DNA of 64,000 nucleotides from a virus. Of the stretch, positions 22,134-49,935 are shown piece after piece. The notes beneath the pieces were generated by a model that saw only the letters and a program-made list of their open reading frames with translations, was not told the DNA's origin and made no database searches. The position numbers and the translations under genes were made by a program. The stretch is taken from the IMG/VR virus record IMGVR_UViG_3300028030_000011, positions 1 through 64,000 of that record; one strand, written 5' to 3'. Numbering within the stretch: position 1 is the stretch's first letter; each line of letters starts with the position of its first letter.

Positions 22134-22348
22134 TGAATTATGGATTACAAAAAGCAACTGAGGTTATGACTAAGGCAGACGCTATAGCCATTAAGCAAAT
22201 AAATGGTGAACCTGTAATGTCTACATTGAGAATTGCTGAGGTAACAGGGAAAGAACATAGTGATGTGCTAAAAAGCTCTCGAAGAGTGTTTGAAGAGCTA
22301 GAATTAGCCGAGGGAAAATATTCCCTGAGCTATTTTGATGCAAAATAG
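22133..22348 (+). CDS. Truncated Rha-family regulator
   Basis: MSTLRIAEVTGKEHSDVLKS Rha N-terminus; stops after the variable segment. Confidence 0.7.
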   Translation: MNYGLQKATEVMTKADAIAIKQINGEPVMSTLRIAEVTGKEHSDVLKSSRRVFEELELAEGKYSLSYFDAK

Positions 22349-22408
22349 GAGAGTCCAAATTTAGCTTCTCCTATTTAAATCTGATACAAAAACAATAAAA
22401 GGTAAATA

Positions 22409-23161
22409 ATGGAATTTAAAATAATTACAGTAGAGAATGATGAGTCGTTTGTAACGATAGATACATTAATTAAATTTAGTGGTAATGTAGAATACTCTGT
22501 TAAAGAATTAATAAGAGAGAATGAGTCAGATATTATGGAATTTAGAAATGAGGGTTCAACCCCCAATTTTGAAAAAAGTGAAAAAGGTAATATTAAATGG
22601 AAACTTGTAAGACTTAATGAAGACCAAGCATCTTTTATTTTAACACTCATGGCAAACAGTCCAGAAGTTAAACTATTTAAGAAAAATCTAATCAAAGAGT
22701 TTAGAGCCTTGAAGAATCAAGTGTTAGAGATTAAGTCTCCAATGCAATTAATTCAAGAAGCTATTGTACTTGCTAATGAACAAGTAGAGAAAGAGAGAAG
22801 TGCAAAAGAGAGAGCATTGAACATGATTCAAACTGCAAAACTTATAGAATCTACTAATGAAGAATCTAAAAAAGATGTCTCAGTAGAAGAGTTCTGCAAA
22901 ATGATTAGTGATAAGTATTCTGTTTTAGTTGGAAGAACGTTAATATATCATATTTTAAGAGAGATGGGATTAGTAATGAAAGACTCAACTAAACCTACTC
23001 AAAGAGGTTTAATGGTCTATCTTGCATATCGTAAACATGAAAGAGGTTATTCAACTAGAATATTCAGAGATAAGGCAAATAAACTTGCTAAATACATGCT
23101 AACGTTTCTAGCAAATAACAGAGAGATTAACGATGCACTTGGTAATCCGTTTGAAATATAA
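22409..23161 (+). CDS. Antirepressor-like protein (Rha-like N-terminus plus KilAC/ANT C-terminus)
   Basis: LNEDQASFILTLMANS..FKKNLIKEF; VSVEEFCKMI..GRTLIY..LRE..PTQRG. Confidence 0.7.
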   Translation: MEFKIITVENDESFVTIDTLIKFSGNVEYSVKELIRENESDIMEFRNEGSTPNFEKSEKGNIKWKLVRLNEDQASFILTLMANSPEVKLFKKNLIKEFRALKNQVLEIKSPMQLIQEAIVLANEQVEKERSAKERALNMIQTAKLIESTNEESKKDVSVEEFCKMISDKYSVLVGRTLIYHILREMGLVMKDSTKPTQRGLMVYLAYRKHERGYSTRIFRDKANKLAKYMLTFLANNREINDALGNPFEI

Positions 23162-23182
23162 TATAGCAGAGGAGTTACAATT

Positions 23183-24112
23183 ATGAATGTACTATCATTA
23201 TTTGACGGTATAGGTACTGGTCAATTGGCATTGAAGCATTTAAATTTTAAAGTTGATAAATGTGTAGCTTATGAAATAGATGAATTGCCAAAATCTATAG
23301 CTATGAGACATTTCCCTGATACTGATTATAGAGGAGATGTTAAGGAGTTTAATGTTAAAGATTTTGATTTTAAATTTGACCTCGTAATGGGTGGTAGTAG
23401 CTGTAATGACTTATCAAATGCTATGGCTAATAGAGATGGTATAGTTGGTTCAAAATCAAGTATATTCTTTGAATTTGTACGCATTTTAAAAAGCGTTAAA
23501 CCTAAATACTTCTTATTTGAAAATGTAGGAAGCATGAGTAAAGCAGACGAAATAATTATAACTCAAATGCTTGGATGTGAACCAATAAAGATTAACAGTA
23601 AAGATTATTCTCCTGCTCTTCGTAATCGTTATTATTGGACTAATATTCCACAAGACAAACATGATAATGCATTTAAGAATGATATAAATTTAAATGATAT
23701 TCTTGAAGATGGTTGGTATTCAGATAGAAAGAAAGCTAGAGCATTATTGGCTTCTGATAGTAGACCTCTTACATCTCCTATTAAGATGATGCATCGTTAT
23801 ATTAATACCGGATTTACAACTGTAGTATTCAGAAATAAAGAGATTGCAGATATGATGATTAAAGATTTCAAAGAAAGATTCTATGGGTTAAAAGCCAAAG
23901 ATATTGATATGGAGTCTATTGATAAAAATATATACAGTAGCGAAAATATTAGATATTTGAACCAACTAGAATTAGAATCATGTCAAACTATACCTCATGG
24001 CTATACAGATGGATTAACTAGAAATCAAGCTGCACATGTACTTGGTAATGGATGGACTTGTCTTGTTATTATGAAGCTACTTAACGGAATGGAAATGGAG
24101 AAAACATTATGA
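23183..24112 (+). CDS. C5-cytosine DNA methyltransferase
   Basis: SLFDGIG, GGSSC (motif IV), FENV, RNRYYW, LGNGW. Confidence 0.9.
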   Translation: MNVLSLFDGIGTGQLALKHLNFKVDKCVAYEIDELPKSIAMRHFPDTDYRGDVKEFNVKDFDFKFDLVMGGSSCNDLSNAMANRDGIVGSKSSIFFEFVRILKSVKPKYFLFENVGSMSKADEIIITQMLGCEPIKINSKDYSPALRNRYYWTNIPQDKHDNAFKNDINLNDILEDGWYSDRKKARALLASDSRPLTSPIKMMHRYINTGFTTVVFRNKEIADMMIKDFKERFYGLKAKDIDMESIDKNIYSSENIRYLNQLELESCQTIPHGYTDGLTRNQAAHVLGNGWTCLVIMKLLNGMEMEKTL

Positions 24113-24471
24113 TATGTATAACAGATTCTAGTGGTGGAGTATTATTTGAAGATGATGAAATATCTCTTGAAGAAGCAAATGCCATAGTAAATACTTATGG
24201 TAAAAAAAATGAAAAATACTATATTCAAGTAGCTAATTCAGGAATTATATTGGATGATGAACTGAAAGAATTGATTGAACAGTATTATACTAAGGAAGAA
24301 ATATTTGAATTATTTTTAGTATCTAGTTTAAACATCACAACAATGTTAGAATATGAGATAAAACCTATTGTTAAAAAAGCATCATTAAAAAAATTTGAAA
24401 AATTATTATTGGGTATTAAAGAGACTCAAATAGATTTTAAAGACACTACATTTGATATACTTAAAAGATAA
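24109..24471 (+). CDS. Hypothetical protein
   Basis: ATGA coupling. Confidence 0.65.
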   Translation: MICITDSSGGVLFEDDEISLEEANAIVNTYGKKNEKYYIQVANSGIILDDELKELIEQYYTKEEIFELFLVSSLNITTMLEYEIKPIVKKASLKKFEKLLLGIKETQIDFKDTTFDILKR

Positions 24472-24474
24472 TAA

Positions 24475-24984: not shown

Positions 24985-25179
24985 ATGCATTGGTATATGT
25001 TGATGAAACAAATACTTAAACAAGGTCTTATAGAGTCTACAGAAGCTGTTATATATGATAGTAGTGGTTTTATGCTTTATGAACCAAAACACGAAGATAT
25101 AAATCAATATGAAGCTGATATGATAGCATATCAAGAATACATAAGCGATAACTATGGAATGGGATATAAATATGAATAA
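24985..25179 (+). CDS. Hypothetical protein
   Basis: Abuts previous stop, AAGGA RBS. Confidence 0.55.
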   Translation: MHWYMLMKQILKQGLIESTEAVIYDSSGFMLYEPKHEDINQYEADMIAYQEYISDNYGMGYKYE

Positions 25180-25529: not shown

Positions 25530-25530
25530 T

Positions 25531-26169: not shown

Positions 26170-26781
26170 TTATGCTAGTAGATTTTTAGCTTCTTCTATT
26201 TTAGTTTCATAGTAAGAAGCTATTTGTTTAAATTCTTCTTGCAATCTTTCAACCTCTGACTTCTGAGGCTTATTTGCTTTACACCATCTATCATAAGCAT
26301 TTCTTACTAAAGAAGAATCATAGGTTGGAGTATTATAAATCATTTTACCAACAGTACCATTTAATTCATCTGGTATTTCTCTTCTAACAGTTATTTTGGC
26401 TTTTGTTTGAGCTAATCCACTCCATACTAAAGCATCCCATACCTCAGTCTCCATTACATCATCTTCAATATCTTCAAATGTAGTACCTATACAACCTCTA
26501 ACACTCATATAGCCATTTTCATATACTTTTGGTTTTTTAGCTATTTTAACAGCTTGTTCTATAGTTGGTCTTAATTCTCCTTTTTTATCTGTATATTTAA
26601 CGGGCTGAAATTTCAGCTCGTTAAATCTTTCTTCATCAAGAGTTGAAATCATTTTATTGAAATCAGAAACTAAATTTTTATTCTCTTTTCCATATTGGTC
26701 AGCTACATCTTTTAATGTCATTTTAAATCCTGCATTTTGCAAGAAACTCTCTGTTGGTGTTAATTCGATTAAATCTTTCAT
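26170..26781 (-). CDS. Cassette A: Rha-like N-terminus (shortened) plus shared C-terminal domain
   Basis: MTLKDVADQYGKENKNLVSDF..Y.DKKGELRP (Rha); AKKPKVYENGYMSVRG. Confidence 0.75.
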   Translation of the reverse strand: MKDLIELTPTESFLQNAGFKMTLKDVADQYGKENKNLVSDFNKMISTLDEERFNELKFQPVKYTDKKGELRPTIEQAVKIAKKPKVYENGYMSVRGCIGTTFEDIEDDVMETEVWDALVWSGLAQTKAKITVRREIPDELNGTVGKMIYNTPTYDSSLVRNAYDRWCKANKPQKSEVERLQEEFKQIASYYETKIEEAKNLLA

Positions 26782-26849
26782 AGATTTATCCTTTAATTAA
26801 AAGTACGGACAATGATAAATTTTGTGAGAGTGAAGTTATGAAGAATCTT

Positions 26850-27032
26850 GTCCAGAGAGTTCTTCAAACTATATATACACTCATTTCAGGTTCAAAAGTA
26901 GTTTAGAGAGGTAAAGTTACCTCTCAAAGAACTCTCTGGACGAGAAATCAATGTATACAAAACAATAAGTTTACTCAATGGTATTCATCTCTGAATACCT
27001 AGAAAGTGGCTTGAACACCATTCAGTAAACTT
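26850..27032 (-). ncRNA. Two tandem structured leader elements (A1 orphan 26967-27032; A2 26850-26957)
   Basis: A2: stem 26874-26887/26944-26957; 15-bp perfect antisense 26927-26941 versus target 26850-26864. Confidence 0.7.
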
Positions 27033-27040
27033 TATAACAG

Positions 27041-27083
27041 TATATCACATCTATTTTAAGAACCACCTATAAGAGATGGTTCA
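27041..27083 (-). repeat. Cassette repeat R1 (terminator hairpin plus promoter), copy 1
   Basis: Minus strand TGAACCATCTCTTATAGGTGGTTC-TTAAAATAGATGTGATATA(C/A)T; also at 27888 and 28830. Confidence 0.95.
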
Positions 27084-27133
27084 GTTCTACCTTTTCCTGA
27101 CTGACTCGCCTGACTGTCGAGCCAATAATTTAA

Positions 27134-27736
27134 TTAGTTGTAATACTGCTTTAATAAATTTATTGCACTATCAAATTTTATATAAGGTGTTTGAAACTCA
27201 CCTCTAGTCTTCAATAAGCCATTGCAATCATTTTTCATGTGCCAATATCTAGTTGGTCTTATTGAATCTTCTATTGCTCCAAGTTTAACAAAGAACTCTT
27301 GTATTTGAGATTCTGTATAATCAGTTCTTTGTGCTATACCTCTTATAGAAGAATATCCATCAGAATCTATCATGCATAATTTCTTTTCTGATTTCAATAG
27401 TTTAATCTCTTCTTCTTTTGATGCTGTTAACATTTCATAAATAATATTATCACACCAAATTGCAAATTCTGGAGAAATCCATCTAGCAAATATAATCAAT
27501 AAACTATTATGGATTAATGTCTTTCCAACTATAGTTGTATTGATTAAGGTTCTTTTAACAGCGTTACATTTTTGTAACGCACTTAAATATTCCTTAACTC
27601 CTTTTGATTTTCTCCAATGAGTAAAATTTTTACCATGAGATTTAGCTATACCACTAACATCAATCATAAATTCTTTTTCATTGATTACCTCTATAGGCAA
27701 TACAGCTTCATTAAAAACTTTTACAAGTTCTTTCAT
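27134..27736 (-). CDS. Cassette B: KilA-N domain plus shared C-terminal domain (possible upstream in-frame TTG at 27796/27793)
   Basis: IDVSGIAKSHGKNFTHW..FARWISPEFAIWCD; DSDGYSSIRG. Confidence 0.85.
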   Translation of the reverse strand: MKELVKVFNEAVLPIEVINEKEFMIDVSGIAKSHGKNFTHWRKSKGVKEYLSALQKCNAVKRTLINTTIVGKTLIHNSLLIIFARWISPEFAIWCDNIIYEMLTASKEEEIKLLKSEKKLCMIDSDGYSSIRGIAQRTDYTESQIQEFFVKLGAIEDSIRPTRYWHMKNDCNGLLKTRGEFQTPYIKFDSAINLLKQYYN

Positions 27737-27778
27737 GATATTTTCTTTCCATAACAATAATTCTAAGTTTTGATTGAT

Positions 27779-27881
27779 GGTGTATGAAATCAACAATCAC
27801 AAATTAATAACTTAGAGGTATATGAAAATTGAGTAATTTCCATATACCAATTATTGGCTTCATACACCTCTAAGCTATTAA
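27779..27881 (-). ncRNA. Structured antisense leader element B
   Basis: Stem 27804-27819/27866-27881; antisense 27850-27868 versus target 27779-27797. Confidence 0.7.
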
Positions 27882-27887
27882 CAAAAT

Positions 27888-27930
27888 TATATCACATCTA
27901 TTTTAAGAACCACCTATAAGAGATGGTTCA
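27888..27930 (-). repeat. Cassette repeat R1, copy 2
   Basis: 43 bp identical to 27041-27083. Confidence 0.95.
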
Positions 27931-27935
27931 TTTAG

Positions 27936-28667
27936 CTATGCTAACAGATTTTCATCAACATACTTTATTGCAGCGTTAGAGAATCTCTCTCTCAATTCAT
28001 CGGCTTCTTCTGATGTTGGTTTGCCATCTTGAATATATTTATAAACTAAATCATTTATGAATTTTAAATCAAATGTAGGTAGTCCATAACTAGTTCTTGA
28101 AGCCATCACATATTTAGCAATCTCATTATCTGTATCTATATCTCTTGATATTGTAATTTTAGGCATAGTCTTAACATACCCATAATGAACTAGCATATCC
28201 CATGCTTCATGTTCTTTTACTACTTCTATACCTTGCTCTTTCAATTCTACTAAACAACCCTTCAAACTCATAAAACCATTGTCATATACTTTTGGCTTTT
28301 TAGCATCTCTTATTGCTTTTGCCTTTTCTTTAGAAAATTCAATCCTTAAAGCATCTTCTCTAATCTTTTGAATTTCATCTCTCATAGTAAAAAATTGATT
28401 TACAAGTTCCTCTTTGAATTTTTCAGTAATTTCATTGTTTGGTAACAATGTTAAAAGTAAGGTACAAGATTTTTCATCAAACTTCATTTCAGAATAATTT
28501 AAGTCTTCCGACAAATCGTATGGATAACTTAATCCATTCTTAATCAACATATTTATCTTTCGTTTAACTATTTTCTTAACAGCTTCATCTCCAAGTTTAG
28601 AAAATTTAATAATAGTAGATAATTCTACAACAGCATTAGTGTTTTCAATAGTAATAAGATTTTGCAT
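27936..28667 (-). CDS. Cassette C: Rha-like N-terminus (similar to gene 22409) plus shared C-terminal domain (possible upstream in-frame TTG at 28721)
   Basis: ATG 28667 with GAGGA RBS; FDEKSCTLLLTLLPNN..FKEELVNQF; AKKPKVYDNGFMSLKG. Confidence 0.75.
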   Translation of the reverse strand: MQNLITIENTNAVVELSTIIKFSKLGDEAVKKIVKRKINMLIKNGLSYPYDLSEDLNYSEMKFDEKSCTLLLTLLPNNEITEKFKEELVNQFFTMRDEIQKIREDALRIEFSKEKAKAIRDAKKPKVYDNGFMSLKGCLVELKEQGIEVVKEHEAWDMLVHYGYVKTMPKITISRDIDTDNEIAKYVMASRTSYGLPTFDLKFINDLVYKYIQDGKPTSEEADELRERFSNAAIKYVDENLLA

Positions 28668-28873: not shown

Positions 28874-31800
28874 TTAAAGCATATCATTTATAATATGTAC
28901 TGGTGCAGGAATAATTAAATCCTCTATATTTCCAAATGGATTTCTCATCTTCTCATCAGGAGTCATTAGTAACCAATAATTCTCAAATGGTGTAGCTATA
29001 TCATATACCACTTTTTCAAATGCTTCTATAGCAAGTACAGTCTTAGGATTCTCTCTTAATAGCCTAGACATTACTTTTTGCATTCTAAGATAGTATTTAA
29101 TGAATGGAAACCAAGCTACTTGGTCAGCCCATCTAACAGCTTTACCAAGAGGTATATCATACTGAACAAAATCATCTAATGCTTCATCATATATCTGTTG
29201 ATATGATTTATTTGTATTGTTCTCTTTCTCTAACTCTATTTGAGCATATCTAGCTGTAAAATCACTAGCTTGTGTAAAGTGATACATGAGTTTAAAATAG
29301 TTAGTGTCTTCTGCTAAATACAATTCTCTACCTATTTTTACTACCTTTTCAGGTAATATTTCTTCAACTTTATCTATAGCATCTCTGATAGGTTTTAGAG
29401 ACTCAAAAGCTTTATTAATAGTTATGTCTTCTATTCTAGCTGACAATAATCCATCATCAATTAAACTTCTTATCTTATTCTGGTTCAATCTACTTTGCAA
29501 ATCTGTAATTAACTCTTCATCATAAAGTAACCCAGAATCTCTTTTAAGCTCTTCTTGCTTAAGTAAATCATCAGTTCTCATATAATCATTGAGATACAAA
29601 AGACCTTCTTTTTGTTTTGCGTATATATCTCTTAAAGAATATCCTTTTGATTTAGTGAGGAATAAGTTAGAAACAAAGTTGCTTAACAACGTAAGAGGAT
29701 ATTTGATAATTACAGTAGCTTTCCATAATCCCATTAATTCTTTCCAAAAATCTTCTGCAAATTTTGCAACTTTCTTCATTGTTGGTATGTCATTAAAAAT
29801 ACTAGATATAGAGCTATCACGAGAACCAAGAAATATATTTTTAGTATTACCATTAGCTGGTATATAGAATCTGCCTTTATATTTATCAACAATATAGTCT
29901 CTAGTATCTTGTGGCAACATATACCATATATCATCATATTCACTTACTTTATTCTCAAAGCCTTTACTAGCAAATGGAGCTGATATTTTTATCCACTCTT
30001 TATTGTCTGTTTTATCTACAAACTTATCAACTGTTTCATTATCTTCTAGTCCAAGTCTAACAATACTATCAATAACTCTAATATTTACTTCTTTTGCTTT
30101 TTGCTTTTCAAATCCTCTAGCTCTTTGGTTCGCATATATATCAGCAATATTGTATGAGTATTTTAGATATTTTTTCTTCTCTTCAAATGATAATGGGTCA
30201 TAATCATAGCGTGAACCATTTCTATTGAATACATACTCAGTATTATGAATTTTTACAAAATTAGGTCTAGCTCTACCATAAAGTTCAAAATACAATTTAT
30301 CTATATCTTGACTAACACTCTTTTCACCATATACTAATGCTCCTCTAGTATATGAATTCATTTCAGGAGTAAGAGAATATACATGAATATTACCCGGACT
30401 AAATGGATTCTTAATTATCTTAATTCTTTCTCCACCTAATTCTCTGACTCTTTTTATTTCATCTTTGTTACTGTCTAATATATTTACTACAGAATTAACT
30501 TTACTACTGTTTTGTATAGCAAGACCATCTTGAACTAAATCAGGGTTATCATGATAGAATTGCTCTAACATCTCTCTCTCATAGCTGTTTGTCATAATCA
30601 TTAAATCATGAAATGCATTCTTATCTTTTGTTACTTTAGATAAAAACTCTTTTTTGTAATTTTTTATTCCTAATAAAGATGCTAAAGCTGTCATCTCATT
30701 CTTTTTGCTAAAATCAAATCTAGTAGCAATAACATGTATATTTCTAAATTTAGTATTCTCATCATGAGTGAGTCTATATTTAACTAGCTTCTTAATGTGT
30801 GGAATAGATTTTTTAGGAACTAATTTTTCTAATCTTCTTATCTCTTCATTTGGATTCTCAATAAGAGATAATATTTGGTCTATTGAATACCCTACATCTA
30901 ATAAATTACCAACTTTAGATGAATTAAGTAAGTTACCTAACAATGACTTCTCATATTCATTTAGACCCATATATTGAATCTTTTCATTAATAAACTCATG
31001 TGTATTGGTTCGTAATTTTTCTCTTACAATATCAACTTCTTTAATTGAATTTCTAAGCTCTTGAACTTCAATGCTAGTATCTTTTGCTGTTTTAAATATA
31101 TTATCACCCAATACTTGCAATTCATCAACTATATTATTTAGGAAACCTTCTTTATCTATTCTCGCTTTAGACATAGAATCAATACCTTTTGAGATAATAT
31201 CACCAATTGCATAACCAAACTCTTTTTTAGAGAATGGAATATTATTCATAGCCATAATAGCTAAAACTTTAGCAATTGTTTTTGTGTCTCCAACTATAAA
31301 TTTAGATATATTTCTTTTTAAAGAATCACTATCTTTTGACATATATTCAATTATATGAAAAACAGAAGATTTATTATCCTTGATTAAATCACTTCTTATT
31401 TTCAATGTTTTACTATGATAGAAGAATGCTAATTTGTTAACATTTGGTTTAATATTTTCATTATATTTATCACCAGCAAATCTAAGAGCTTTATACACAC
31501 CATTAAATACTTTATTCTCATTTTCAATAGTTATTCCTACACTCTGTTTTACAAGTGTTTGTAATTTACTTTGCATATCTAAATCTATTCTTCCATTAGT
31601 GAGAAGCATAGTTAATTTCTTTAATGAAGATGTAACAATATTTACAAGATTACTCAAAATAGAACCATTACCTTTATTCAATATTGTATTCATGCCAGAT
31701 AGATTGTTCATAAAATTCTTATTTGTTAATCCATATGCTGCAAACTCTGATACATCTCCTTTACCACCAAATACATGTTTAGCCATTCTTTTAGCTAATT

Positions 31801-34800
31801 GTTCATCTTCTACTGTATATACACCATCTTTAGGAAGGAATAATTTATATATATCTTTACCATGCTGCTGTTTTAACTCTTTCATCATATCTGTTATTTG
31901 ATTAACAAATATATTTGCGTCTTTTAATGCACCATCAAAAATATTATGAACTAACTCATGCACATATACTTCTTGTGCTGACATGCTCATATTGTCACTA
32001 CCTTGGTTAGCAATAGCTATTTTAGCAACATTCGAACCACTTGCACTACCGTAACTCATACTATCTGTTTTACCTACTGCAACTACAATTGTTTCCATTA
32101 CAGGAGCTATAATACTACTTAAAACATTTGATAGTTTATTGCTGTATTCAGAGCTAATTACATCATTTGACCATTGTTTTATTTTCTCAAATGATTTAAT
32201 TATATTCTCTTTATTTACTTTAAATGTAAAATATGGTTTAAACTCTTCATTTGTATCAAGAGATTGTTTTGTGTTGTTAATCTCTTGTTTTGCTTTTTTA
32301 AGTTTCGTCAAATGACTATTCAATTTGGTCTTATCCAATTGAATAATCTCTATGCCACTATCCTTCATTATTTCATTAACAGCTCTAACTAAAGCATAGC
32401 CTGTTAGGCTTTCAAGTTTTCTAACAGGTATTTTATCAAATGCTTCTAATACATCTTCAAGCTCTATTTTTGATAATTCAGGATTAGAACCATTCTTCAT
32501 GAGATGCTCATAATTTAAATCATTAGCTGTCGTTTTAGTCTTAGGGGTGTAATTATTAATCTCATTATTAAGACCTGTCAATGATTCACTTTGACCTAAT
32601 TTTTCATTTGTCTCTTCTTTATATTTGTCATAAATTTTTTTATGCTCAGTAGTATCTATAGGTTTAAAATCATTTGATTCATTTTTGACATATCTTTCGT
32701 CTACTCCAACAGAATGCTCAATTGTAGTTACAATGTCCTTTAATATGCGTCTGTTTAACTGATTCAATTCAATATGAAAATCAATAGATATAGGGTCAAA
32801 ATATATGCTACCATTATCACCTACTTTTACAGTAGATAAAGTTCCTATCATCATTGAATCTATTTGCTTTTTCGATAATTTATCTTTATCTAATGATTCG
32901 TAGAATCTAAATAATCTATCTGTAGCATATTCAGTATATGGTATTATTTTATTATCTACTTTCATATCATGAACAGATTTAGGCAACATTGCATTTATAT
33001 TTTCTTTAGTCCACTCATAATTGTTAAATGCTATTTTTGCATTTTTAAGAACTTCAACAAATGGTGAATATCCACTATCAATAAGTTTATTAACACTTTT
33101 ATTATATTGTTTAGCTCCACCTTCTGCTGATAGAACAGCATCAAAAATATACAATCCTATATTTTCTTGTGAAGTATTTTTGATAGTGTCTGCAAGTACA
33201 CCAGAGTCAGTCATAAGAGTTGATAGAGCTGGTGTTCTTACTCCAATATCAATCCATGATGTAACTCCAATAGTTTGAGTAGACATCAAATGTCTATCCT
33301 TGCCTTTTGTAGCCACTTTGACTTGATAGTTTTTACCCTTTATAATATTGTTTATTTGGTCATTAAAACCTCTCTTCATTAACTCACCTTGTCTACCCTC
33401 AAAAGTGGTTAAAACAGGTGCTATCCCATCTTTAATGAGCTTATTTGTTATCTCATTGATTACTTGCTTAGAGATAAATCCATGTTCTTTATGATATGCG
33501 TCTAATCGTCTAAAGAACTCATCTAAAAAATATTTATTTTGAAGATTAGATACTCTTTGAGTAATCTCTGTACCTTGCTTAAAAGGAGCTAGAACTTTAT
33601 TTATAGAATCAGTAATCACTTTACCTAAAGTGTTTCTATAATTAGTTCTTAATGTAGCTAACTGTTTAGCAGTAAATTCAAAATCATTTAAATTATAATT
33701 ATATTTATTTGTATTTGTAGGATTCTCTAAACTATGTAACCTCTCATTGAGGTGGTTCATCAATTCTTGAATATTTTCATCATTAAATTGAGACTCTTGT
33801 ACTTTACCATTTATTGTAAGTTTAACCTCTTTCCCATTTGAATCTTTGTTAAAATTAACAATTGATTGAACCATCTGAACGACTAATTGTATCTCTTGCT
33901 TTGTTGATTTACCATTAGCAATATCTTCTATTTTAGTATAAAAATCATCTATCATTTCATCAAATTTACTGTCCTGAATAGACTTGTCACCAGCTGTATA
34001 TCCTTTAGCAATTATAGGTGTTTTAAAGAAGTTTCTAGCTTGTCTAAGAGCTTCTGACCCTTTAGATAATGTATCAGATACAACCCATGATTCTAGCATA
34101 GGCTTAAAAAAGTTATTGAATAGATTATATCTAGCTACTTTAGCATAGTATGCATTCTTTTCGTTAACTGTCTTTAATTCTTTCTTTGGTGGCTCAGGCT
34201 TACGATTATGCTCATAATCATTATCTTTATCCTGCAATCTATTGTGCATTTCAATACCTGATTCTTCATAGTTATCAAGACCTACATAGTCAGTATTTTT
34301 TGTTGTGTCAGTTTGGTTCGTATAGATACCACCTTTATGAAGCATTTCAACAGATTTGCTATCTAATGGATTGAAATAGAATATTGATTGTAAAGTCGAA
34401 CCACTCTGTTTTGCATCAGTCTCTTTTTCAAGTGTAGTTTCAAATATATCACCTTTTTTATTTACAAACTTTTTAAGTTCTACCAATCCTTGAAGAGTAT
34501 ATGCTCCTTCTCCATATTTTTGAACCAGTTCAATAGGAGGATATATAGACTTATCATTGAGATATGACATTAGTTCACTATCTAATAACAACTTACCAAA
34601 CTCTTCTAGTATTTCATCAGGCTTCATATTCTCAGATTTCATTCCAAATGAATCAAGAATAGCTGATTTCCATATTAGCATTCTACCTTCATCTTTAATA
34701 TCAACAGTTCTTTTAGAGTTGATATTATGAGTCAAAAATCTATGTAATTTATTTGACTGAGGGTTAATCAGTTCAGCTACCAAATGCATTCTCTCTTCAC

Positions 34801-37800: not shown

Positions 37801-39754
37801 TTTGTATTTTGTCTCTATCATTGGTTTTATCAATTATACGGATTAGATTATCAAATTCAAGCTCTCCATCAATATCTTTAAATTTGACTTCTCGTTTGGC
37901 TACTCCACCATCAGGAGTAGGTTCATTTTGAGACATCGTTGTTTTCTTATTTATAGATGTCCTTAAATCAGACGATAATACATTTCCAAGTCTATTAAAC
38001 TCATCTTCTTTAGTTGGTTCAGGCTCTGTAGTGGCTTTTGAACCATCTGTAGAAGGAGTATCATTAGGAGATGGTTCATTATCTTTACCAAAGAACGGTG
38101 TTCCATCGTCATTAGTTGAAATAGACTCATAAAATCTAGCTCTCTCTTTAGCATCTGCTTCATCTTTAATAGCTTGTTGCTCTTTTTGGTACGCTCTATC
38201 CTCCCCTAATCTTCTAGTAGTATCAGGAAGTGAATGTACACTACTCATACCAGCACCAATACTTAGACCTGCTAAAGCACCTTTCAGTACAGTATCAATA
38301 GTCTTTTGGTCTTTAGGGAAGTTATTGCCAAATGCATCAGTACCAAGAGTTGTAGCCAATAACTCTCCATAAGTTTGAACAGCTTCTGTAGAACCCTCCC
38401 ATGCTCCACCTGTAGCTGCTCTTTTTGATAAATCAATGGCTGATGTAAGCATCTCAGTAGTTAATGCTCTTTGAGCTGTAGGAGATGAACCAGCTAGTAA
38501 CTTCTTAATATTATCAATATTAGATGCACCTGCTTTACCTTTTATTATACTTTGAAATGCAAGTCTATCTAATGCATTCTTAGCCAATAAGAAAGTAAAT
38601 GTATTTATAGCACTACCAGATGTTTCTCCATCAAGATTATTCTTAGCTCTTTCTTCTAATGCTGTATTCGTCTCTCCAAGAGTATATGATAATAGACCAC
38701 CATTCTTTAACGCTAAACCTTTAGCACCTTCAAGCATAGCTTTTGTCTTTTCTATTCCTTGAAGTAATTCAGAACCACCATTCACCAATCCTTTAGATGC
38801 ATTAAGCAATGCTCCAGATTCACCTACAGGAGTCATCATTAAAGCCATATCTCCAGCACTCTCAGAGAATAATGCATCAGCTTGTTTAAACGCTTCCCAT
38901 GCTGCTTTAGCATATTTCATTTTATGAGAGTTCTTTGAGTTCCAACCAATCTTTAAATTATGTAATCCCTCATCAAGTGCTATATTTGATTCGGTATCAT
39001 CATAGCTATTTAGTCTATTTGAATACTCTTTATCTTTTAGCTTATTGAAGTATGTGCTGTCTCCAAGATATAATGCATCTCCTTTTTTACTCCCTAGTGC
39101 AGTATCAATTAATGCTGATGTAGTATCTAATGCAAAATCTCCAATTGATGAACTAGCTCTACCAAGTGATGCGTAAGCACCTTTTAGGTCATTCCATGGT
39201 CTTCCGAGAAAACCTAACCCATCATCTGTAGCATCATTGTTATACTCTTTTAAAGCTTCTAGCTCTTTAGCTCTATCATCTTCACCAAGAGCATATAATT
39301 TTTCTATCTCCTTATTGGCTAATTCTTGACGTTTTCTATCGTATTTATTTGAAGATACAGCTTTACCACTAGCAATAGACAAATCAGCTAATTCAGGTAT
39401 ATCAACAAGTAATCTACCATACTTATCTCTTTTTCCTGTATAGTTATTGTATATATCTTTTGCTGTTATTTTGCCAGTATTAATCATCATCTCTAACATA
39501 CTACTACCAGTAGTATTGTCAGGTGTTATACCAGATTCATTTTCTAATTCTTGTGCTTTTTTTGAATCAATTGTTTCTAATGAATCATAACCCTTGAATC
39601 TAAAAATTCTACCTGTTATATTATCCTTTACAGTATCACCATCAATGACTTCTAATGTATTGTCTTTTACGCCAAGAGACTCATCAATTCTGTCATCAGT
39701 AGATGAACCAAGTTTTTGTAACATTTCATCAAATTTATCTAAAGATTGTGGCAT
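28874..39754 (-). CDS. N4-like virion-encapsidated RNA polymerase (3626 aa) with N-terminal thermonuclease-like domain and HExxH motif
   Basis: ERMHL..NPQSNKLHR, motif A ETDAKQSG, motif B RNFFKTPIIAKGYTAG, motif C YIFDA; size; no Cys seen on reading; HELVH. Confidence 0.85.
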   Translation of the reverse strand: MPQSLDKFDEMLQKLGSSTDDRIDESLGVKDNTLEVIDGDTVKDNITGRIFRFKGYDSLETIDSKKAQELENESGITPDNTTGSSMLEMMINTGKITAKDIYNNYTGKRDKYGRLLVDIPELADLSIASGKAVSSNKYDRKRQELANKEIEKLYALGEDDRAKELEALKEYNNDATDDGLGFLGRPWNDLKGAYASLGRASSSIGDFALDTTSALIDTALGSKKGDALYLGDSTYFNKLKDKEYSNRLNSYDDTESNIALDEGLHNLKIGWNSKNSHKMKYAKAAWEAFKQADALFSESAGDMALMMTPVGESGALLNASKGLVNGGSELLQGIEKTKAMLEGAKGLALKNGGLLSYTLGETNTALEERAKNNLDGETSGSAINTFTFLLAKNALDRLAFQSIIKGKAGASNIDNIKKLLAGSSPTAQRALTTEMLTSAIDLSKRAATGGAWEGSTEAVQTYGELLATTLGTDAFGNNFPKDQKTIDTVLKGALAGLSIGAGMSSVHSLPDTTRRLGEDRAYQKEQQAIKDEADAKERARFYESISTNDDGTPFFGKDNEPSPNDTPSTDGSKATTEPEPTKEDEFNRLGNVLSSDLRTSINKKTTMSQNEPTPDGGVAKREVKFKDIDGELEFDNLIRIIDKTNDRDKIQTIIDNSPIIRNTGTITKMSLSKLSKEELLQTLTRARDNFKTKQSNTEPVTPNATNEYPEPQTPTTEPSTQQETTVVNEPPKQDTAKKIDTKRAYHTVQSKMPNYHQVMGKEVKTVEDASNSYNEVDNLEKEFHDKIGKDAVKEIDNISNEIQNVITDEEYDALYDKENPKVPKSLKDKGYTLQDIDNILNIKQVLDSIQTAKASLKSVVDNNPITKNSISDNESANISAFMDMPNVDTIRTEDKSVQEQIDKSKEYNQVKDKYQVSKEIFTGDNNNVGISQWESRLSDATPKQIEESGYKRFVGQMNDKAIRFKQALVESRATGKRVSLGVNSLGTEEYVDANHNGSVKLVDRIEREAKAVNESYNNFLKSRGGIPSETSITNEPSQQDTKEDKQIKEDKKVVGSHISNIEKASTIDEAKDAFAKGLQDLQNRKLANQYANELKKSFNTKKKELTPVKEDKRASRLERKIDELQAKLDGIYQTKDGKWKKRYKGVQKEINDKKKKIAKLEKDLETINKRIENTKKFKKGKKSKLNKDKKSEILPSLREVIVEKIKQFVKEINSLITKLFKNKEQIQKELDSLNKELSALIELQVKSKQYRTNEVSRKQNINVLMSEYKKKLKATGKLTDGFIAKINTIDKGFYNKLQKMKLPKGVKFGLMKAFETWDLISQSIEGTQGNDYSTKDKEIQYFNNIVRPLIKQARELVQNISDRGEIFAMDFNKEDSDKYNEMLNGLDENTLVNLVTFVAIDGMMNQGGEMFNENTDEDIATLLGLNSEHDVTVAMKSRFKYGKLQSNIISSMSNLMNEYISLQSNNPLAKERFGSAIALLATHLLRTSNLANVEQFSMTMKEFNAYRAIPYSTDSNKRVNFLRANDKSPIRGKGKAVLKKVFRMHLPEERTTPHEIVKDEAINKQQQAPRQIKQEIIDLYQELGEKEFRDYLRTIMGYDFKFANTAGIYSHTSKHASIKGKNLQIDDSIDTLMEVIETIGNTPMYYKYKRASEERMHLVAELINPQSNKLHRFLTHNINSKRTVDIKDEGRMLIWKSAILDSFGMKSENMKPDEILEEFGKLLLDSELMSYLNDKSIYPPIELVQKYGEGAYTLQGLVELKKFVNKKGDIFETTLEKETDAKQSGSTLQSIFYFNPLDSKSVEMLHKGGIYTNQTDTTKNTDYVGLDNYEESGIEMHNRLQDKDNDYEHNRKPEPPKKELKTVNEKNAYYAKVARYNLFNNFFKPMLESWVVSDTLSKGSEALRQARNFFKTPIIAKGYTAGDKSIQDSKFDEMIDDFYTKIEDIANGKSTKQEIQLVVQMVQSIVNFNKDSNGKEVKLTINGKVQESQFNDENIQELMNHLNERLHSLENPTNTNKYNYNLNDFEFTAKQLATLRTNYRNTLGKVITDSINKVLAPFKQGTEITQRVSNLQNKYFLDEFFRRLDAYHKEHGFISKQVINEITNKLIKDGIAPVLTTFEGRQGELMKRGFNDQINNIIKGKNYQVKVATKGKDRHLMSTQTIGVTSWIDIGVRTPALSTLMTDSGVLADTIKNTSQENIGLYIFDAVLSAEGGAKQYNKSVNKLIDSGYSPFVEVLKNAKIAFNNYEWTKENINAMLPKSVHDMKVDNKIIPYTEYATDRLFRFYESLDKDKLSKKQIDSMMIGTLSTVKVGDNGSIYFDPISIDFHIELNQLNRRILKDIVTTIEHSVGVDERYVKNESNDFKPIDTTEHKKIYDKYKEETNEKLGQSESLTGLNNEINNYTPKTKTTANDLNYEHLMKNGSNPELSKIELEDVLEAFDKIPVRKLESLTGYALVRAVNEIMKDSGIEIIQLDKTKLNSHLTKLKKAKQEINNTKQSLDTNEEFKPYFTFKVNKENIIKSFEKIKQWSNDVISSEYSNKLSNVLSSIIAPVMETIVVAVGKTDSMSYGSASGSNVAKIAIANQGSDNMSMSAQEVYVHELVHNIFDGALKDANIFVNQITDMMKELKQQHGKDIYKLFLPKDGVYTVEDEQLAKRMAKHVFGGKGDVSEFAAYGLTNKNFMNNLSGMNTILNKGNGSILSNLVNIVTSSLKKLTMLLTNGRIDLDMQSKLQTLVKQSVGITIENENKVFNGVYKALRFAGDKYNENIKPNVNKLAFFYHSKTLKIRSDLIKDNKSSVFHIIEYMSKDSDSLKRNISKFIVGDTKTIAKVLAIMAMNNIPFSKKEFGYAIGDIISKGIDSMSKARIDKEGFLNNIVDELQVLGDNIFKTAKDTSIEVQELRNSIKEVDIVREKLRTNTHEFINEKIQYMGLNEYEKSLLGNLLNSSKVGNLLDVGYSIDQILSLIENPNEEIRRLEKLVPKKSIPHIKKLVKYRLTHDENTKFRNIHVIATRFDFSKKNEMTALASLLGIKNYKKEFLSKVTKDKNAFHDLMIMTNSYEREMLEQFYHDNPDLVQDGLAIQNSSKVNSVVNILDSNKDEIKRVRELGGERIKIIKNPFSPGNIHVYSLTPEMNSYTRGALVYGEKSVSQDIDKLYFELYGRARPNFVKIHNTEYVFNRNGSRYDYDPLSFEEKKKYLKYSYNIADIYANQRARGFEKQKAKEVNIRVIDSIVRLGLEDNETVDKFVDKTDNKEWIKISAPFASKGFENKVSEYDDIWYMLPQDTRDYIVDKYKGRFYIPANGNTKNIFLGSRDSSISSIFNDIPTMKKVAKFAEDFWKELMGLWKATVIIKYPLTLLSNFVSNLFLTKSKGYSLRDIYAKQKEGLLYLNDYMRTDDLLKQEELKRDSGLLYDEELITDLQSRLNQNKIRSLIDDGLLSARIEDITINKAFESLKPIRDAIDKVEEILPEKVVKIGRELYLAEDTNYFKLMYHFTQASDFTARYAQIELEKENNTNKSYQQIYDEALDDFVQYDIPLGKAVRWADQVAWFPFIKYYLRMQKVMSRLLRENPKTVLAIEAFEKVVYDIATPFENYWLLMTPDEKMRNPFGNIEDLIIPAPVHIINDML

Positions 39755-46229: not shown

Positions 46230-46252
46230 AACTTATATAAAAAAGGAATAAC

Positions 46253-48100
46253 ATGATTACAAGTAAAAAATATTTCAATCCAGATGGTTGTGAAATTCTC
46301 AATGAGAGAATATTTGCATCAACCCAAAATAATACAGGCTTTGTAGATTTCAATAGAAGCAAGTATCAATGGGATAGTGATGTGTATGACCTAATGAATG
46401 CCAATACATGGTTTAACTAAAAATAGACCAGTTTAAACACATTGAATTGCTGGGAAGCCTAAGTTGGTTCAAAGTGAAGTTAATCTATAATAAGAGAAAT
46501 ATTACAAGGAATCAATATGGTAATCAGCAGGGAAGCAGAGTATAACGAAACAAATGAAGTTTTTAAACAGATAGGTACTACGATTTATTCTGTTAGTACA
46601 CATGGAAGGGTAAGGAACGACAAAAGAATGAAATTTTTAACTCCAAGAAATCTTAGAGGATATGCAAGAGTTTCATTGTGGTTCGATGGGAAAGCAAACG
46701 ACAAAAGAATACATAGATTAGTCGCAGAAGCTTTCTTACCTAATCCTGATTGTAAACCAGAAGTAAATCATAAAAATGGTATCAGAAATGATAATCGTTT
46801 ATGTAATCTTGAATGGGTAACACCACAAGAAAATGTAAAACATAAAATGGAAGTTTTGAAACAAGAATCACAACAAGGCGAAAAAAACGCTAATTCAAAA
46901 CTTTCAGAAAGTGATATTATTTCTATACGAAACTCTAAAAAAGATGCTAAATTATTAGCAAAAGAATATGGAGTATCGTTAACACATATCTATCGGATAA
47001 AAGCCAAAAAAATGTGGAGTCATATCTGAACCTTCAACGACTATCGAAACGGTACTACTATAAGAGATTATAGTAGAAGAACGGAGTAGAGTACACCTAA
47101 GTAGGTGGAAGTGGTGTGGCATATAGAGAAGACTTAATTGAGTTCTTTATGTGTATGATATAGTCTAGCCTATATAGAAATATATAGAAGTTCATAAGAG
47201 AACTGCATAGGATTAACGACCCTATGTGAATATAAGCGTCCATCTGAGGTTAATACATCTAATGAAAAAAAGCAATTTAGTCAACTAACAGAAAATGAAC
47301 AAGCTATTTATAAAATGACATTTGCTCAACTTAGCTTTAATGATTCTGCTCAGGAAGAATACCTTAGTGACTTTAGGCGACTAGCAAATAACCGTTTACT
47401 GAAAGCTGTTATGTCTTTACAGATTACCCAAGAGGTAAACCACTCAAAGAGTTACGCTGTGCTACTTGATGCTTGTGGCAATTCGGAAGAGGTCTTTAAT
47501 CTTTATAAATATGATGATATGCTAAATAGAAAGAATCAACGAATCTCGGAACAATTTGCCAGATATATAAATGGTAATTCTGTTGATAAGATGTTGCTTT
47601 CAGCCATGGCTTCTGTTAATCTTGAAGGTATTTATTTCTTGCTTGGATTTGGATATATCTATACTCTTGGGGAGAAAGTTCAAGGAGCTAGAGATATGAT
47701 AAAATTTATTGCTAGAGATGAACTAAACACGCATCTGCCACTCTTTGCCAATATTTTCAAGACTATACAAAAAGAGAACAAAATTAAAACAAGCACAATA
47801 GATTCAGTTCATAAAATGATAGAAGAAGCTGTTGAAATAGAATTAGAATATGGAGAGTATTTATTAGATACATATCCTATTATGGGTATAACTAAAGAAT
47901 TGATGAGAGATACAGTCTATAATTATGCTAATGATAGACTTGATAAGATAGGACTAAAACCTATATTCAAAGAGAGTCATACTACACATATTCAAAAATT
48001 AGTAACTAAACATTTAAATATAAATGATGTAAAGAGTAACTTCTTTGAATCAAATGTAGCTGGATATGCTAAATCAAGTATTGAATTAGATGACTTTTAA
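46253..48100 (+). CDS. nrdB: Class Ia ribonucleotide reductase beta subunit, spliced: exon 1 46253-46413, exon 2 47239-48100 (340 aa)
   Basis: Joining TGG TT|T CCA restores NTWFPSEV; FNDSAQ, EVNHSKSY, LEGIYF, RDE, NFFE..V..Y motifs. Confidence 0.9.
46414..47238 (+). mobile_element. Group I intron in nrdB
   Basis: P1: exon TGGTT pairs with IGS GACCA (U.G at splice site); P AATTGCTGGGAA, Q AATCAGCAG, R TCAACGACTA, S ATGATATAGTC; ends in G. Confidence 0.9.
46517..47029 (+). CDS. Intron-encoded NUMOD4/HNH homing endonuclease
   Basis: YSVSTHGRVRN, IHRLVAEAFL, VNHKNG.RNDNRLCNLEWVT..EN, C-terminal HTH. Confidence 0.9.
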   Translation: MVISREAEYNETNEVFKQIGTTIYSVSTHGRVRNDKRMKFLTPRNLRGYARVSLWFDGKANDKRIHRLVAEAFLPNPDCKPEVNHKNGIRNDNRLCNLEWVTPQENVKHKMEVLKQESQQGEKNANSKLSESDIISIRNSKKDAKLLAKEYGVSLTHIYRIKAKKMWSHI

Positions 48101-48270
48101 GATATTACAATGTATAATGTATTGAGCCAGTGTACAACTTCTCCCCAGTTAATGCGTTGGCTCATAGATGATATTTTCCTTGTGTGTGTGTTTCATTTTT
48201 TTTCCCACCAAAGAATAAGAACTCCTTTCGATTTTGAAATTTATTTTGAACCACCTAAATGAGTGGTTCA
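48096..48270 (+). ncRNA. Candidate sRNA of about 145 nt with its own promoter and terminator
   Basis: TTTAAG..TGTATAAT promoter; TGAGCCA/TGGCTCA hairpin with TCTCCCC loop; terminator TGAACCAC/GTGGTTCA 48247-48270. Confidence 0.45.
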
Positions 48271-48271
48271 T

Positions 48272-48304
48272 GTAGAGTTAGTGTTTAGCTAACTCCATTT
48301 GATT
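48272..48304 (-). repeat. Cassette repeat R2, partial copy (hairpin GAGTTAG-TGTTTAG-CTAACTC)
   Basis: Matches 49238-49271 and 50106-50139. Confidence 0.85.
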
Positions 48305-48311
48305 GGTTATG

Positions 48312-49076
48312 CTATTTATCAGATAGATACTCTTCTAGTTGTCTTCTCATCTTAGTTTTAAAGTCTTGATTTACACATGGACTTCCTACTTTATTATATT
48401 GATTTATTATGGCTCTAACAGCATCTGGAATATAAGTATAATCTCTAGTAGCTTTTACACCATCTTTTTTAAATGTTTTAGACTTGTAGACTAAACCCAT
48501 ATAGTCATCATTCATTGTTGGTCTAGTTGTTATTTTAATGTCTACAGTCATAACCTCTTTCCACACCAAAGCATCTTTTATATAATCATAAGACTCTTGA
48601 AATCCATAATGTTGAATAAGACCTGTAATAGATGTTGTGCCATCATCATGCAATCTAACTTTATTTGCATCAGCTTCTATTTGAGCTATTTGCTGTTGAG
48701 CTTCTTCTAAGATTAGCATTTCATTTTTTTTAGATTCAAGTCGTATTTCATTTTTAATCCATCTATCACAAGCTACAGCAAAATCAGAAGAAATCCATCT
48801 TGCAAAATGGATTATTAAATCTGGATGAATATATGTTCCACCATACTTTCCTTGAATAGCTTGTTTTAACTCCGTAGATTTTACGGAGTTAAAATTACAT
48901 ACAGACTTCATATATTCTTGTGTATCTTGACTTTTCCAATAATTAGATAAATCTTTACCAAAAGTTTTAGAAACCTCTGTAGCATTTAACCATGCTCCAT
49001 TTTCTAATGCAAATTTAATATTTACATCAACTAAGTCTAATGTAGTGTTTGAGAAATTTTTTAATTGAATTTCCAT
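48312..49076 (-). CDS. Cassette D: KilA-N domain plus shared C-terminal domain
   Basis: WLNATEVSKTFGK..GGTYIHPDL..FARWISSDFAVACD; HDDGTTSITG. Confidence 0.9.
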   Translation of the reverse strand: MEIQLKNFSNTTLDLVDVNIKFALENGAWLNATEVSKTFGKDLSNYWKSQDTQEYMKSVCNFNSVKSTELKQAIQGKYGGTYIHPDLIIHFARWISSDFAVACDRWIKNEIRLESKKNEMLILEEAQQQIAQIEADANKVRLHDDGTTSITGLIQHYGFQESYDYIKDALVWKEVMTVDIKITTRPTMNDDYMGLVYKSKTFKKDGVKATRDYTYIPDAVRAIINQYNKVGSPCVNQDFKTKMRRQLEEYLSDK

Positions 49077-49117
49077 TTAACAGTATTACTTTCATTAATT
49101 TTAAGTGAAGGATTTGG

Positions 49118-49205
49118 AGAGGTTATCAAGCTTTCTAATCCTATTATACACTTAGAGGTTAGCATCTCTACTAACCGACTAGAAGGCTTGATAACCTCTA
49201 AATGT
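49118..49205 (-). ncRNA. Structured antisense leader element D
   Basis: Stem 49148-49161/49192-49205; antisense 49177-49199 versus target 49118-49140 (21/23 identity as inverted repeat). Confidence 0.7.
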
Positions 49206-49209
49206 CTTT

Positions 49210-49271
49210 AAAATTATATCATATAAATCTTTAATGAGTAGAGTTAGTGTTTAGCTAACTCTTGTTTGATT
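49210..49271 (-). repeat. Cassette repeat R2 (terminator hairpin plus promoter), copy 1
   Basis: 62 bp, one mismatch to 50078-50139; minus strand ends TAAAGATTTATATGATATAAT. Confidence 0.95.
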
Positions 49272-49935
49272 GTCTTACATAATCAATTACAGCTTGTTTA
49301 ACGACTTGTGGATAGTATGTAGGTGCTTGTGTGCCTCTATCAGTACCTATATAGCTTGGAGTACCTTCTGGTAATCTTCTATACTTTGTAACTTTAGTAA
49401 TATCTTCATTCCACCCCTTAAATGTTAAAGCTTCCCAAACAAAGTCTTCTGATACATCTAATCCAGTATGTTGAATAACTCCTCTAACACTCATCGTACC
49501 ATCATCATAAATTTTACATTTCTTAGCATTAGCTACTGCTAACTGTTTTTCTTTCTCTGCTTGTTCTAATAGAGCTTCTGTTTTAATCTGATTTACTTTA
49601 ATCATTTCTGATTTAATAAATCTATCACACTCAATAGCAAATTTAGGAGAACACCATCTTGCAAAATGAACCACGAGTTCTGGGTGTAAATATGTTCCTT
49701 GTTGTTTTCCTTTACCTGTAACAACAATTTTAAGGTCACTGATTTTCAGTGAGCATAATTCTGCTAATTCAATCATATATTCTTCAGTATCTTTTGATGT
49801 GAAATAGTTATCAATACGCTTACCAAACTCTTTAGCTGTTGTTGTAGCATTAATCCATAAACCATTCTGTAATGCGAACATTACTTCTTTACTTGATATA
49901 GCTTCATTACTAAAGCTGTGTAATTCTAAATCCAT
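49255..49935 (-). CDS. Cassette E: KilA-N domain plus shared C-terminal domain
   Basis: WINATTTAKEFGK..QGTYLHPEL..FARWCSPKFAIECD; YDDGTMSVRG; stop lies inside R2. Confidence 0.9.
   Translation of the reverse strand: MDLELHSFSNEAISSKEVMFALQNGLWINATTTAKEFGKRIDNYFTSKDTEEYMIELAELCSLKISDLKIVVTGKGKQQGTYLHPELVVHFARWCSPKFAIECDRFIKSEMIKVNQIKTEALLEQAEKEKQLAVANAKKCKIYDDGTMSVRGVIQHTGLDVSEDFVWEALTFKGWNEDITKVTKYRRLPEGTPSYIGTDRGTQAPTYYPQVVKQAVIDYVRQSNKS

Follow-up and report, generated by a model that had tools for sequence, protein, structure and literature searches.

Results

Rha and KilA-N genes of the phage and the palindromes within them

We analysed the first 64,000 nucleotides (nt) of a single viral contig of 76,293 base pairs (bp) with 30% G+C (IMG/VR record IMGVR_UViG_3300028030_000011; this 64-kilobase stretch is called the window hereafter) and concentrated on seven genes for proteins of the Rha and KilA-N types, which make up 5.9% of the genome. 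A preliminary description of the sequence had listed six palindromes in these genes, and we confirmed all six in position and in sequence. They represent a symmetric nucleic-acid element that keeps a fixed position, diversifies, and is independent of strand, reading frame and coding context. The genes are the following:

22133 to 22348, plus strand: small Rha-like open reading frame (ORF) of 71 amino acids with the helix-turn-helix and the first wing strand only; Pfam Phage_pRha, E 2.3e-4; PHROG anti-repressor Ant, E 1.5e-6
22409 to 23161, plus strand: Rha paralogue that lacks a palindrome at the corresponding site and serves as internal negative case; Pfam Phage_pRha, E 1.8e-6
26170 to 26781, minus strand: gene A, Rha-like, 203 amino acids; Pfam Phage_pRha, E 1.3e-4, under the curated cut-off; PHROG anti-repressor
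27134 to 27796, minus strand: gene B, KilA-N protein; Pfam KilA-N, E 1.9e-14, 53.8 bits
27936 to 28721, minus strand: gene C, Rha-like; Pfam Phage_pRha, E 7e-4, under the cut-off; PHROG 2657
48312 to 49076, minus strand: gene D, KilA-N protein of 254 amino acids with a long coiled coil (helix 97-139); Pfam KilA-N, E 2.1e-20, 73.0 bits
49255 to 49935, minus strand: gene E, KilA-N protein of 226 amino acids; Pfam KilA-N, E 3.1e-19, 69.2 bits

All three KilA-N proteins score above the curated cut-off of their profile (PF04383, 23.8 bits). The Rha-like proteins stay below that of Phage_pRha (PF09669, 29.9 bits), with 22.1 bits for the small ORF, 28.9 for the paralogue at 22409-23161, 23.0 for A and 20.5 for C; PHROGs label them as Rha-like or anti-repressor. 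As read from the sequence, the true starts of genes B and C are likely the ATG codons at 27737 and 28667, respectively. Residues 1-75 of A, used as phmmer query against 1.84 billion representatives, retrieved 63 proteins that have the pattern GKxHKNV...FNxLNFxPVxYxDxKGExRP in common.

The palindromes are located as follows:

22305 to 22332: small Rha ORF, imperfect, 11 of 14 pairs (hand count); encodes LAEGKYSLSY just before the wing Y-x-D, as in A
26595 to 26626: palindrome A, arms of 16 nt with 15 of 16 pairs; codons 53-62, FNELKFQPVK on the minus strand
27544 to 27597: palindrome B, core at 27561-27580 with 8+8 perfect pairs and a loop of 4; extended arms of 25 nt at 76%
28500 to 28531: palindrome C, degenerate and marginal, 9 of 16 Watson-Crick pairs (hand count), about 8 codons upstream of the A-equivalent position
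48864 to 48894: palindrome D, 13+13 perfect pairs, loop of 5; codons 61-71, NFNSVKSTELK
49734 to 49754: palindrome E, core at 49736-49752 with 7+7 pairs and a loop of 3, or 8 pairs with one mismatch; codons 61-68

The equivalence of position that had been proposed for B, D and E is exact for D and E, but the centre of B lies about 6 codons upstream. Altogether, A, D and E each have an inverted repeat at the codons leading from helix 3 to the wing, with compensating changes in relatives. B and the small Rha ORF show this arrangement approximately, whereas neither C, a marginal case, nor the paralogue at 22409-23161 shows it.

Palindromes A and D exceed chance expectation

In an inverted-repeat scan allowing at most one mismatch and a loop of at most 8, A (15 pairs) and D (14 pairs) came first and second among all short-loop inverted repeats in the 76,293-bp genome, and likewise among its 78 ORFs. 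First-order Markov genomes (n = 40) led us to expect 0.07 hairpins of at least 14 pairs per genome, and none of them reached 15 pairs. Given the encoded peptide and the codon usage of the genome, the probability of pairing at least as good as observed was 5e-5 for A, 0.011 for D, 0.058 for E, 0.088 for the small Rha ORF and 0.28 for B. A and D are beyond chance.

The folding energy of the segments was compared with that of synonymous shuffles, with p values of 0.002 (A), 0.022 (D), 0.004 (E), 0.066 (B), 0.010 (small Rha ORF) and 0.006 (C), for segments that had been picked after the palindromes had been seen. The helix 3-wing segment of the paralogue at 22409-23161 contains no hairpin, and its energy was not significant (p = 0.136). 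Fold stability in the window ranged from -10 to -17 kcal/mol, which is among the lowest windows of each gene: the palindrome of B has the lowest folding energy among 204 windows of its gene, and that of C ranks second among 239, yet no hairpin of at least 8 pairs is found at the site in C. The region test for palindrome E gave p = 0.027. In the gene-wide test, the palindromes of B, E and the small Rha ORF were individually not significant; they carry weight because they are located at a position conserved in the family.

The rarest codons of the genome are concentrated in every palindrome. Palindrome A contains CTG (2% of Leu codons), CCC (1% of Pro), CAG (15%) and AAC (18%), and palindrome D contains TCC (1% of Ser) and ACG (4% of Thr). 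CTG (2%) and ATC (9%) are found in E, GCG (3% of Ala) in B, and GCC (4%), TCC (1%), CTG (2%) and AGC (6%) in the palindrome of the small Rha ORF. The palindromes had been called private to their genes, and this is borne out by the absence of a second copy of any arm, at one mismatch or less, from the whole phage genome, including promoters and leaders.

The position of the palindrome is conserved among relatives while its sequence changes

For both families, relatives were sampled as the best 80 matches per scan, and the members of these samples are phylogenetically related. Since loop lengths are too variable for a trustworthy gapped alignment, we used tests of position, of shuffled codons and of swapped arms. 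The KilA-N sample comprised 80 loci from viral contigs, corresponding to 68 distinct genes; their G+C content spans 25-64%, and in the matched segments they are 28-46% identical to D. A scan of viral contigs with the single protein D yielded no close relatives, and the KilA-N alignment yielded no matches in the genome collection.

In most of these KilA-N genes, the best hairpin of the whole gene is found at the alignment position of the D palindrome, with differing stems, just before the strand-turn-strand motif GKYGGTYIHP / GRxGGTWxHP. When genes less than 80% identical were considered, the top hairpin fell within this 23-codon region in 21 of 35, against 12% expected. The synonymous-shuffle tests gave a combined p of 6e-20, which is overstated as the sequences are related. 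The 71 KilA-N genes harbour 38 distinct palindromes, and cognate arms form 8.83 pairs on average compared to 7.87 for arms swapped between genes (p = 1.3e-4).

A corresponding pattern was observed in the Rha family. The homologues of A have kept the palindrome at the same codons with different arms, by means of double non-synonymous changes such as N..V to S..A (AAC/GTT to AGC/GCT) and LKFQ to LKFE (CTG/CAG to CTC/GAG). The peptide FNELKFQPVK of A is a version of FNxLNFxPVxY, the best-conserved motif of the Rha proteins in the phmmer set. A peptide-based test on 59 unique motifs, with a library clustered at 50% identity, revealed a palindrome potential of 12.4 of 15 pairs for the motif 10-mer compared to 8.9 +/- 1.7 for other 10-mers of the same proteins, and cognate arms again matched better than swapped ones (permutation p = 2e-4). 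The inner residue pair of nearly all motifs permits exact reverse-complement codons (L-Q/E/K, R-A, S-G, P-R, T-R). At the DNA level, the top hairpin was situated at the motif in 27 of 61 scorable genes out of 72 further Rha genes, with the compensations CTG/CAG, CTC/GAG, CCG/CGG and GCT/AGC.

These data confirm that the palindromes lie within the region encoding the DNA-binding domain and that their sequences vary from one paralogue to the next and, in relatives, along with the gene. The idea that they coincide with the most variable peptide segment holds for KilA-N across subfamilies only: it fails for Rha, where the palindrome of A coincides with the best-conserved motif, and the D peptide FNSVKSTELK is conserved in the close relatives of D. 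The allele of A is nearer to those of L091 and of Fusobacterium phage Fnu1 than to that of L085, the closest relative of A overall, and because of this resemblance the sequences suggest that the palindrome module has been exchanged or rewritten between genes in a mosaic manner.

The element is conserved as DNA

An exact-pattern scan with the allele of A identified eight loci. At some of them the allele is read as NELNFQPV, as in A and Fusobacterium phage Fnu1, and at others the opposite orientation is translated, giving NGLNFQLV; what is conserved is therefore a slightly asymmetric piece of DNA that can be used either way round. Likewise, the KilA-N allele AAAGGTGGGAWWWTCCCACCTTT is translated in two frames, as FKGGIFPPL and as LKVGKSHLF, in two KilA-N genes (52% and 62% G+C) that Pfam confirms as such and that carry it at an identical position of the domain.

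An exact copy of the A allele was also found outside genes, in a 390-bp stretch without an ORF (3784-4176) of the viral contig L178 (IMGVR_UViG_3300005721_000056). This stretch contains at least four different palindromes of one build, ...CTSAAWWTTSAG..., with private outer arms. The array forms the tail of a phage-like element, follows genes for an AntA-domain and an XRE-type protein and abuts a convergent VasI gene. When non-coding copies of a KilA-N allele were looked for, most of the hits were ordinary terminators from A/T-rich phages; the evidence for use outside genes is thus confined to the Rha-type allele.

Sense and antisense RNA are equally stable when folded (17 versus 17 genes; 47 versus 39 G-U pairs). 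On the sense strand, a T-run 5' and an A-run 3' flank the palindromes of A and D, and the reverse order (A-5'/T-3') is seen in other subfamilies; this varying polarity rules out an intrinsic terminator. Rfam 15 gave 0 matches at gathering score in the whole window, from which tRNAs are also absent. The family-wide symmetry, the two orientations, the two frames, the non-coding copy and the equal folds of both strands indicate that the element is selected as DNA, conserved in its symmetry and not as peptide.

The palindrome encodes the predicted transition from helix 3 to the wing

The AlphaFold model of D (predicted local distance difference test score, pLDDT, 75) contains helices at residues 43-48 and 50-63, a loop, and wing strands at 71-74 and 80-83, followed by a 43-residue helix (97-139) that likely serves dimerisation. 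The best structural matches of this model were the Mbp1/APSES DNA-binding domains 1bm8 and 1mb1 (probability 0.97-0.99, E about 0.03) and the PCG2-DNA complex 4ux5, all with weak E-values. By comparison with the APSES fold, codons 61-71 with palindrome D would run from the end of the putative recognition helix through the loop into the first wing strand. The sequence pattern of the Rha proteins points to an analogous junction between helix 3 and the wing for their palindromes; the model of A (pLDDT 51) was too poor for use.

A differs from its closest relative L085 at 4 of the first 50 residues, and only 4 of 10 residues are identical in the palindrome segment. Three of these differences (residues 35, 39 and 43) are on helix 3 with a spacing of i, i+4 and i+8. 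If Fnu1 and L091 are included, residues 35 and 39 follow the outer and the inner arm, respectively, an anecdotal observation on four sequences.

Genomic context of the cassettes

A giant ORF of 3,626 amino acids (28874-39754) matches the PHROG virion RNA polymerase family (E 5e-142), and the phage is therefore N4-like; it is of lytic type, with a genome of 76 kilobases. Nucleotide matches of the 26-29 kilobase region to named phages were to Fusobacterium phages only.

In gene A, about 38 residues present in homologues are deleted directly after the wing, between ...RPT and IEQAVK. A may be a trimmed Rha domain that retains the helix-turn-helix and the palindrome as well as the beginning of the wing. 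The 71-amino-acid Rha-like ORF overlaps the stop codon of the upstream helicase gene (ATGA); it stops a few codons past its palindrome and is followed by a hairpin of 17+17 nt (22343-22376). The ORF may be what is left of a truncated gene, or its product may be short by design and consist of a helix-turn-helix only.

The cassettes have leaders at 26782-27133, 27797-27935, 49077-49254 and 49936-50142, each with a long hairpin of its own (26967-27032, 27804-27881, 49148-49205 and 50001-50077), the stems of which include CTTAGAGG/CCTCTAAG. A repeated unit of a hairpin and a promoter-like sequence borders the cassettes (27040-27085 and 27885-27930). None of the cassette leaders contains a match to the palindrome of its own gene.

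Two HNH endonuclease genes, free-standing or intron-borne, adjoin the second KilA-N cassette array, one at 50143-50916 with an I-HmuI-like NUMOD domain and one at 46517-47029 with HNH_3 and NUMOD4 domains, which marks the cassette regions as hotspots of selfish or mobile genes. The gene for the small subunit of ribonucleotide reductase is apparently split, with an N-terminal piece in the open frame 46241-46420 (product end ...MNANTWFN) and the remainder at 47198/47315-48100 (Pfam Ribonuc_red_sm, profile positions 53-277). About 0.8 kilobases lie between the two pieces and encode the HNH-NUMOD4 endonuclease at 46517-47029. The arrangement resembles a group I intron that carries a homing endonuclease, yet Rfam gave no intron match. 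Short perfect palindromes are present near both contig ends, with 11+11 bp at 38-59 and with 9- and 10-bp stems and loops of 1-3 nt at genome positions 76104-76124 and 76199-76219, beyond the window. They may represent early hairpin promoters of the N4 type or terminal features.

Discussion

A putative binding site within the gene of its own regulator

Rha, KilA-N and related "anti-repressor-like" proteins are encoded by some of the commonest phage genes. We propose, with moderate confidence, that the palindrome is the double-stranded DNA binding site of a dimer of the very protein that it helps to encode. According to this proposal, genes for winged-helix proteins of the Rha and KilA-N types would each carry one allele of the element at fixed codons that cover the end of helix 3, the loop and the first wing strand. 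A dimer of the encoded protein, in the case of D with its long coiled coil, would bind the palindrome in its own gene; this coiled coil and the helix-3 differences are indirect hints of such binding. The site might then be an auto-operator or transcriptional roadblock that depends on no promoter and moves together with the gene. Alternatively, it might be a mark of "self" or a decoy that titrates the protein on the replicating genome of the phage, as in the BstA/aba system discussed below. Because the site and part of the DNA-reading surface share nucleotides, and nearby helix-3 residues change along with them, each paralogue would possess a private pair of protein and site. The lack of a second arm copy in the genome means that such a site would act only locally or as a tag.

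The preliminary description had considered an intragenic operator, an origin-like site and an mRNA hairpin. Our results favour the first of these, namely a DNA site in the manner of an intragenic operator, over an mRNA hairpin.

A more far-reaching version, which we regard as doubtful, holds that the same approximately 25-30 bp encode the specificity-determining piece of the winged helix and form the predicted palindromic site of its dimer. A single event of template switching or inversion would then rewrite reader and site at once and give rise to orthogonal pairs of regulator and site, five in this phage alone. Mobile elements could gather the bare sites as arrays and thereby sense or soak up the regulators of many phages.

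Several observations weigh against binding of the palindrome by its own protein. The sequences used in the family tests are related, and the combined p-values overstate their independence. About 40% of the KilA-N genes do not have a clear palindrome at the site, and the same is true at the motif for more than half of the sampled Rha genes and, in the window, for C and the paralogue at 22409-23161. No arm has a second copy in the phage genome, including its promoters. The arms differ in length and spacing (24-32 bp overall) more than is usual when a dimer binds in a single mode. Selection for the stability of a hairpin or cruciform would be compatible with the enrichment of G:C pairs as well, and the correlation with helix 3 is based on four sequences.

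Alternative explanations

The palindrome may instead be a structure-forming DNA element, a cruciform or single-strand hairpin, that serves recombination or is recognised by a factor other than the encoded protein, although we judge this to be unlikely. It could be a hotspot at which the helix 3-wing module is rewritten, inverted or exchanged, or the target or sensor of a host, satellite or defence factor. The rare codons ending in G or C that strengthen the stems in a genome with 30% G+C fit such an element, as do the occurrence of the allele in both orientations, the mosaic exchange suggested by the closer resemblance of the A allele to L091 and Fnu1 than to L085, and the non-coding array of several alleles at the end of a mobile element. 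However, arms of 8-16 bp are poor at cruciform extrusion, and the outer arms are A/T-rich (TAAA...TTTA) even in GC-rich genomes, so that stability is not simply maximised. Moreover, a candidate for the partner factor was not identified.

It is improbable that the palindromes are functionless quasi-palindromes that perpetuate themselves by template switching, which copies changes from arm to arm while the protein loop tolerates the outcome. Quasi-palindrome correction by template switching is established in bacteria, and its products would be just the compensating multi-nucleotide non-synonymous changes and orientation flips observed here; the encoded KilA-N segment is also a loop and strand start that tolerates many sequences. 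Nevertheless, this process leaves unexplained why the element has the same structural position in at least two families between 25 and 64% GC, is retained despite costly rare codons, coincides with the most conserved motif in Rha and is kept as array copies in non-coding DNA.

A hairpin of the mRNA within the coding region, acting on translation, transcript stability or processing as a ribosome pause, RNase site or attenuator, appears quite improbable. The local folds are stable and among the lowest windows per gene, and their loops on the sense strand are often A-rich. The sense strand, however, folds no better than the antisense strand, the element is present in both orientations, in two frames and in non-coding DNA, the flank polarity, which differs between subfamilies, rules out an intrinsic terminator, and Rfam gave no match.

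Chance, or a by-product of conserved peptides and A/T-rich codon bias, is highly improbable given a symmetry that persists while peptide, reading frame and orientation change; it is refuted for A, D and the families as a whole, and C is the only realistic case. In its favour, conserved residues (F/L-N ... D/E-L) account for the outer base pairs, the D peptide alone leads to a null mean of 7.5-9.9 pairs, and the palindromes of B, E and the small Rha ORF are individually unremarkable.

If the palindrome is indeed the cognate site, each of these genes would announce its own target sequence, which would make the function of thousands of genes directly testable and explain the presence of many paralogues with private sites in one phage. 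Conservation of the "protein motif" FNxLNFxPVxY would in part be conservation of its DNA, and tests for selection that rely on codons would give misleading results here.

Comparison with known systems

Full-text literature searches retrieved no description of a family-wide covarying palindrome in KilA-N or Rha/antirepressor genes; the KilA-N genes in one paper that deals with conserved mRNA structures come from eukaryotic viruses and serve solely as a clustering example. Quasi-palindrome correction resembles our findings in that it accounts for joint arm changes and orientation flips, but it is a mechanism of change and not a function, and the fixed position, rare codons and non-coding arrays are outside its reach.

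The virion RNA polymerase of N4 uses hairpin promoters. The genome studied here is N4-like and the hairpin of E has a 7-bp stem and a 3-nt loop, but the palindromes are intragenic and of varied shape. An N4-type hairpin promoter was ruled out, as the feature is common to lambdoid and other non-N4 phages.

The origin of phage lambda consists of four iterons and an A/T-rich region in the linker-coding segment of gene O, the replication initiator. It is similar to the palindromes in being a site for the N-terminal domain of a protein that lies inside the gene of this protein and diversifies with it among related phages. In contrast, there is one palindrome per gene here, it lies within the DNA-binding domain and has no link to replication. 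The origin-like site of the preliminary description is not supported: each gene has a single palindrome without iterons, and the arms are not repeated in the genome.

BstA is a prophage-borne abortive-infection protein with a KilA-N domain and a C-terminal domain of its own (Owen et al. 2021, PMC8585504). Its locus contains aba, a short DNA element that acts as DNA, is specific for the cognate protein and differs between variants; aba is 63 bp long, extends across the start codon from -29 to +34 and requires direct repeats at its termini (PMC8585504). The likeness is that of a KilA-N protein with a DNA element inside its own locus, and D and E have weak PHROG matches to the BstA family (E 3e-4) that are limited to residues 25-116, the KilA-N part. 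The elements described here differ in being inverted repeats at codons 53-71 instead of the start codon, without a direct-repeat design, and the genes belong to a lytic N4-like phage and do not match the BstA-type C-terminal domain. In position, direct repeats, C-terminal domain and prophage location, these genes thus lack what defines the aba self-immunity system.

The remaining case concerns phage HK022, the Roi protein of which is, together with BstA and aba, the closest precedent. At the codons equivalent to those of A, its roi gene has only a 5+5 bp inverted repeat, read by eye, which is below the reporting threshold of our scan. Roi is a Rha-type helix-turn-helix protein, the C-terminal half of which is related to P1 Ant1 and KilA. 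Clerget and Boccard reportedly found in 1996 that Roi recognises a site in the coding sequence of its gene, next to an IHF site. Roi is a single protein, in contrast to the families considered here, and shares with them a reported site inside the coding sequence of a Rha-type gene. If the palindromes are cognate sites, the single cases of Roi binding to its own gene and of BstA/aba would be joined under one general principle.

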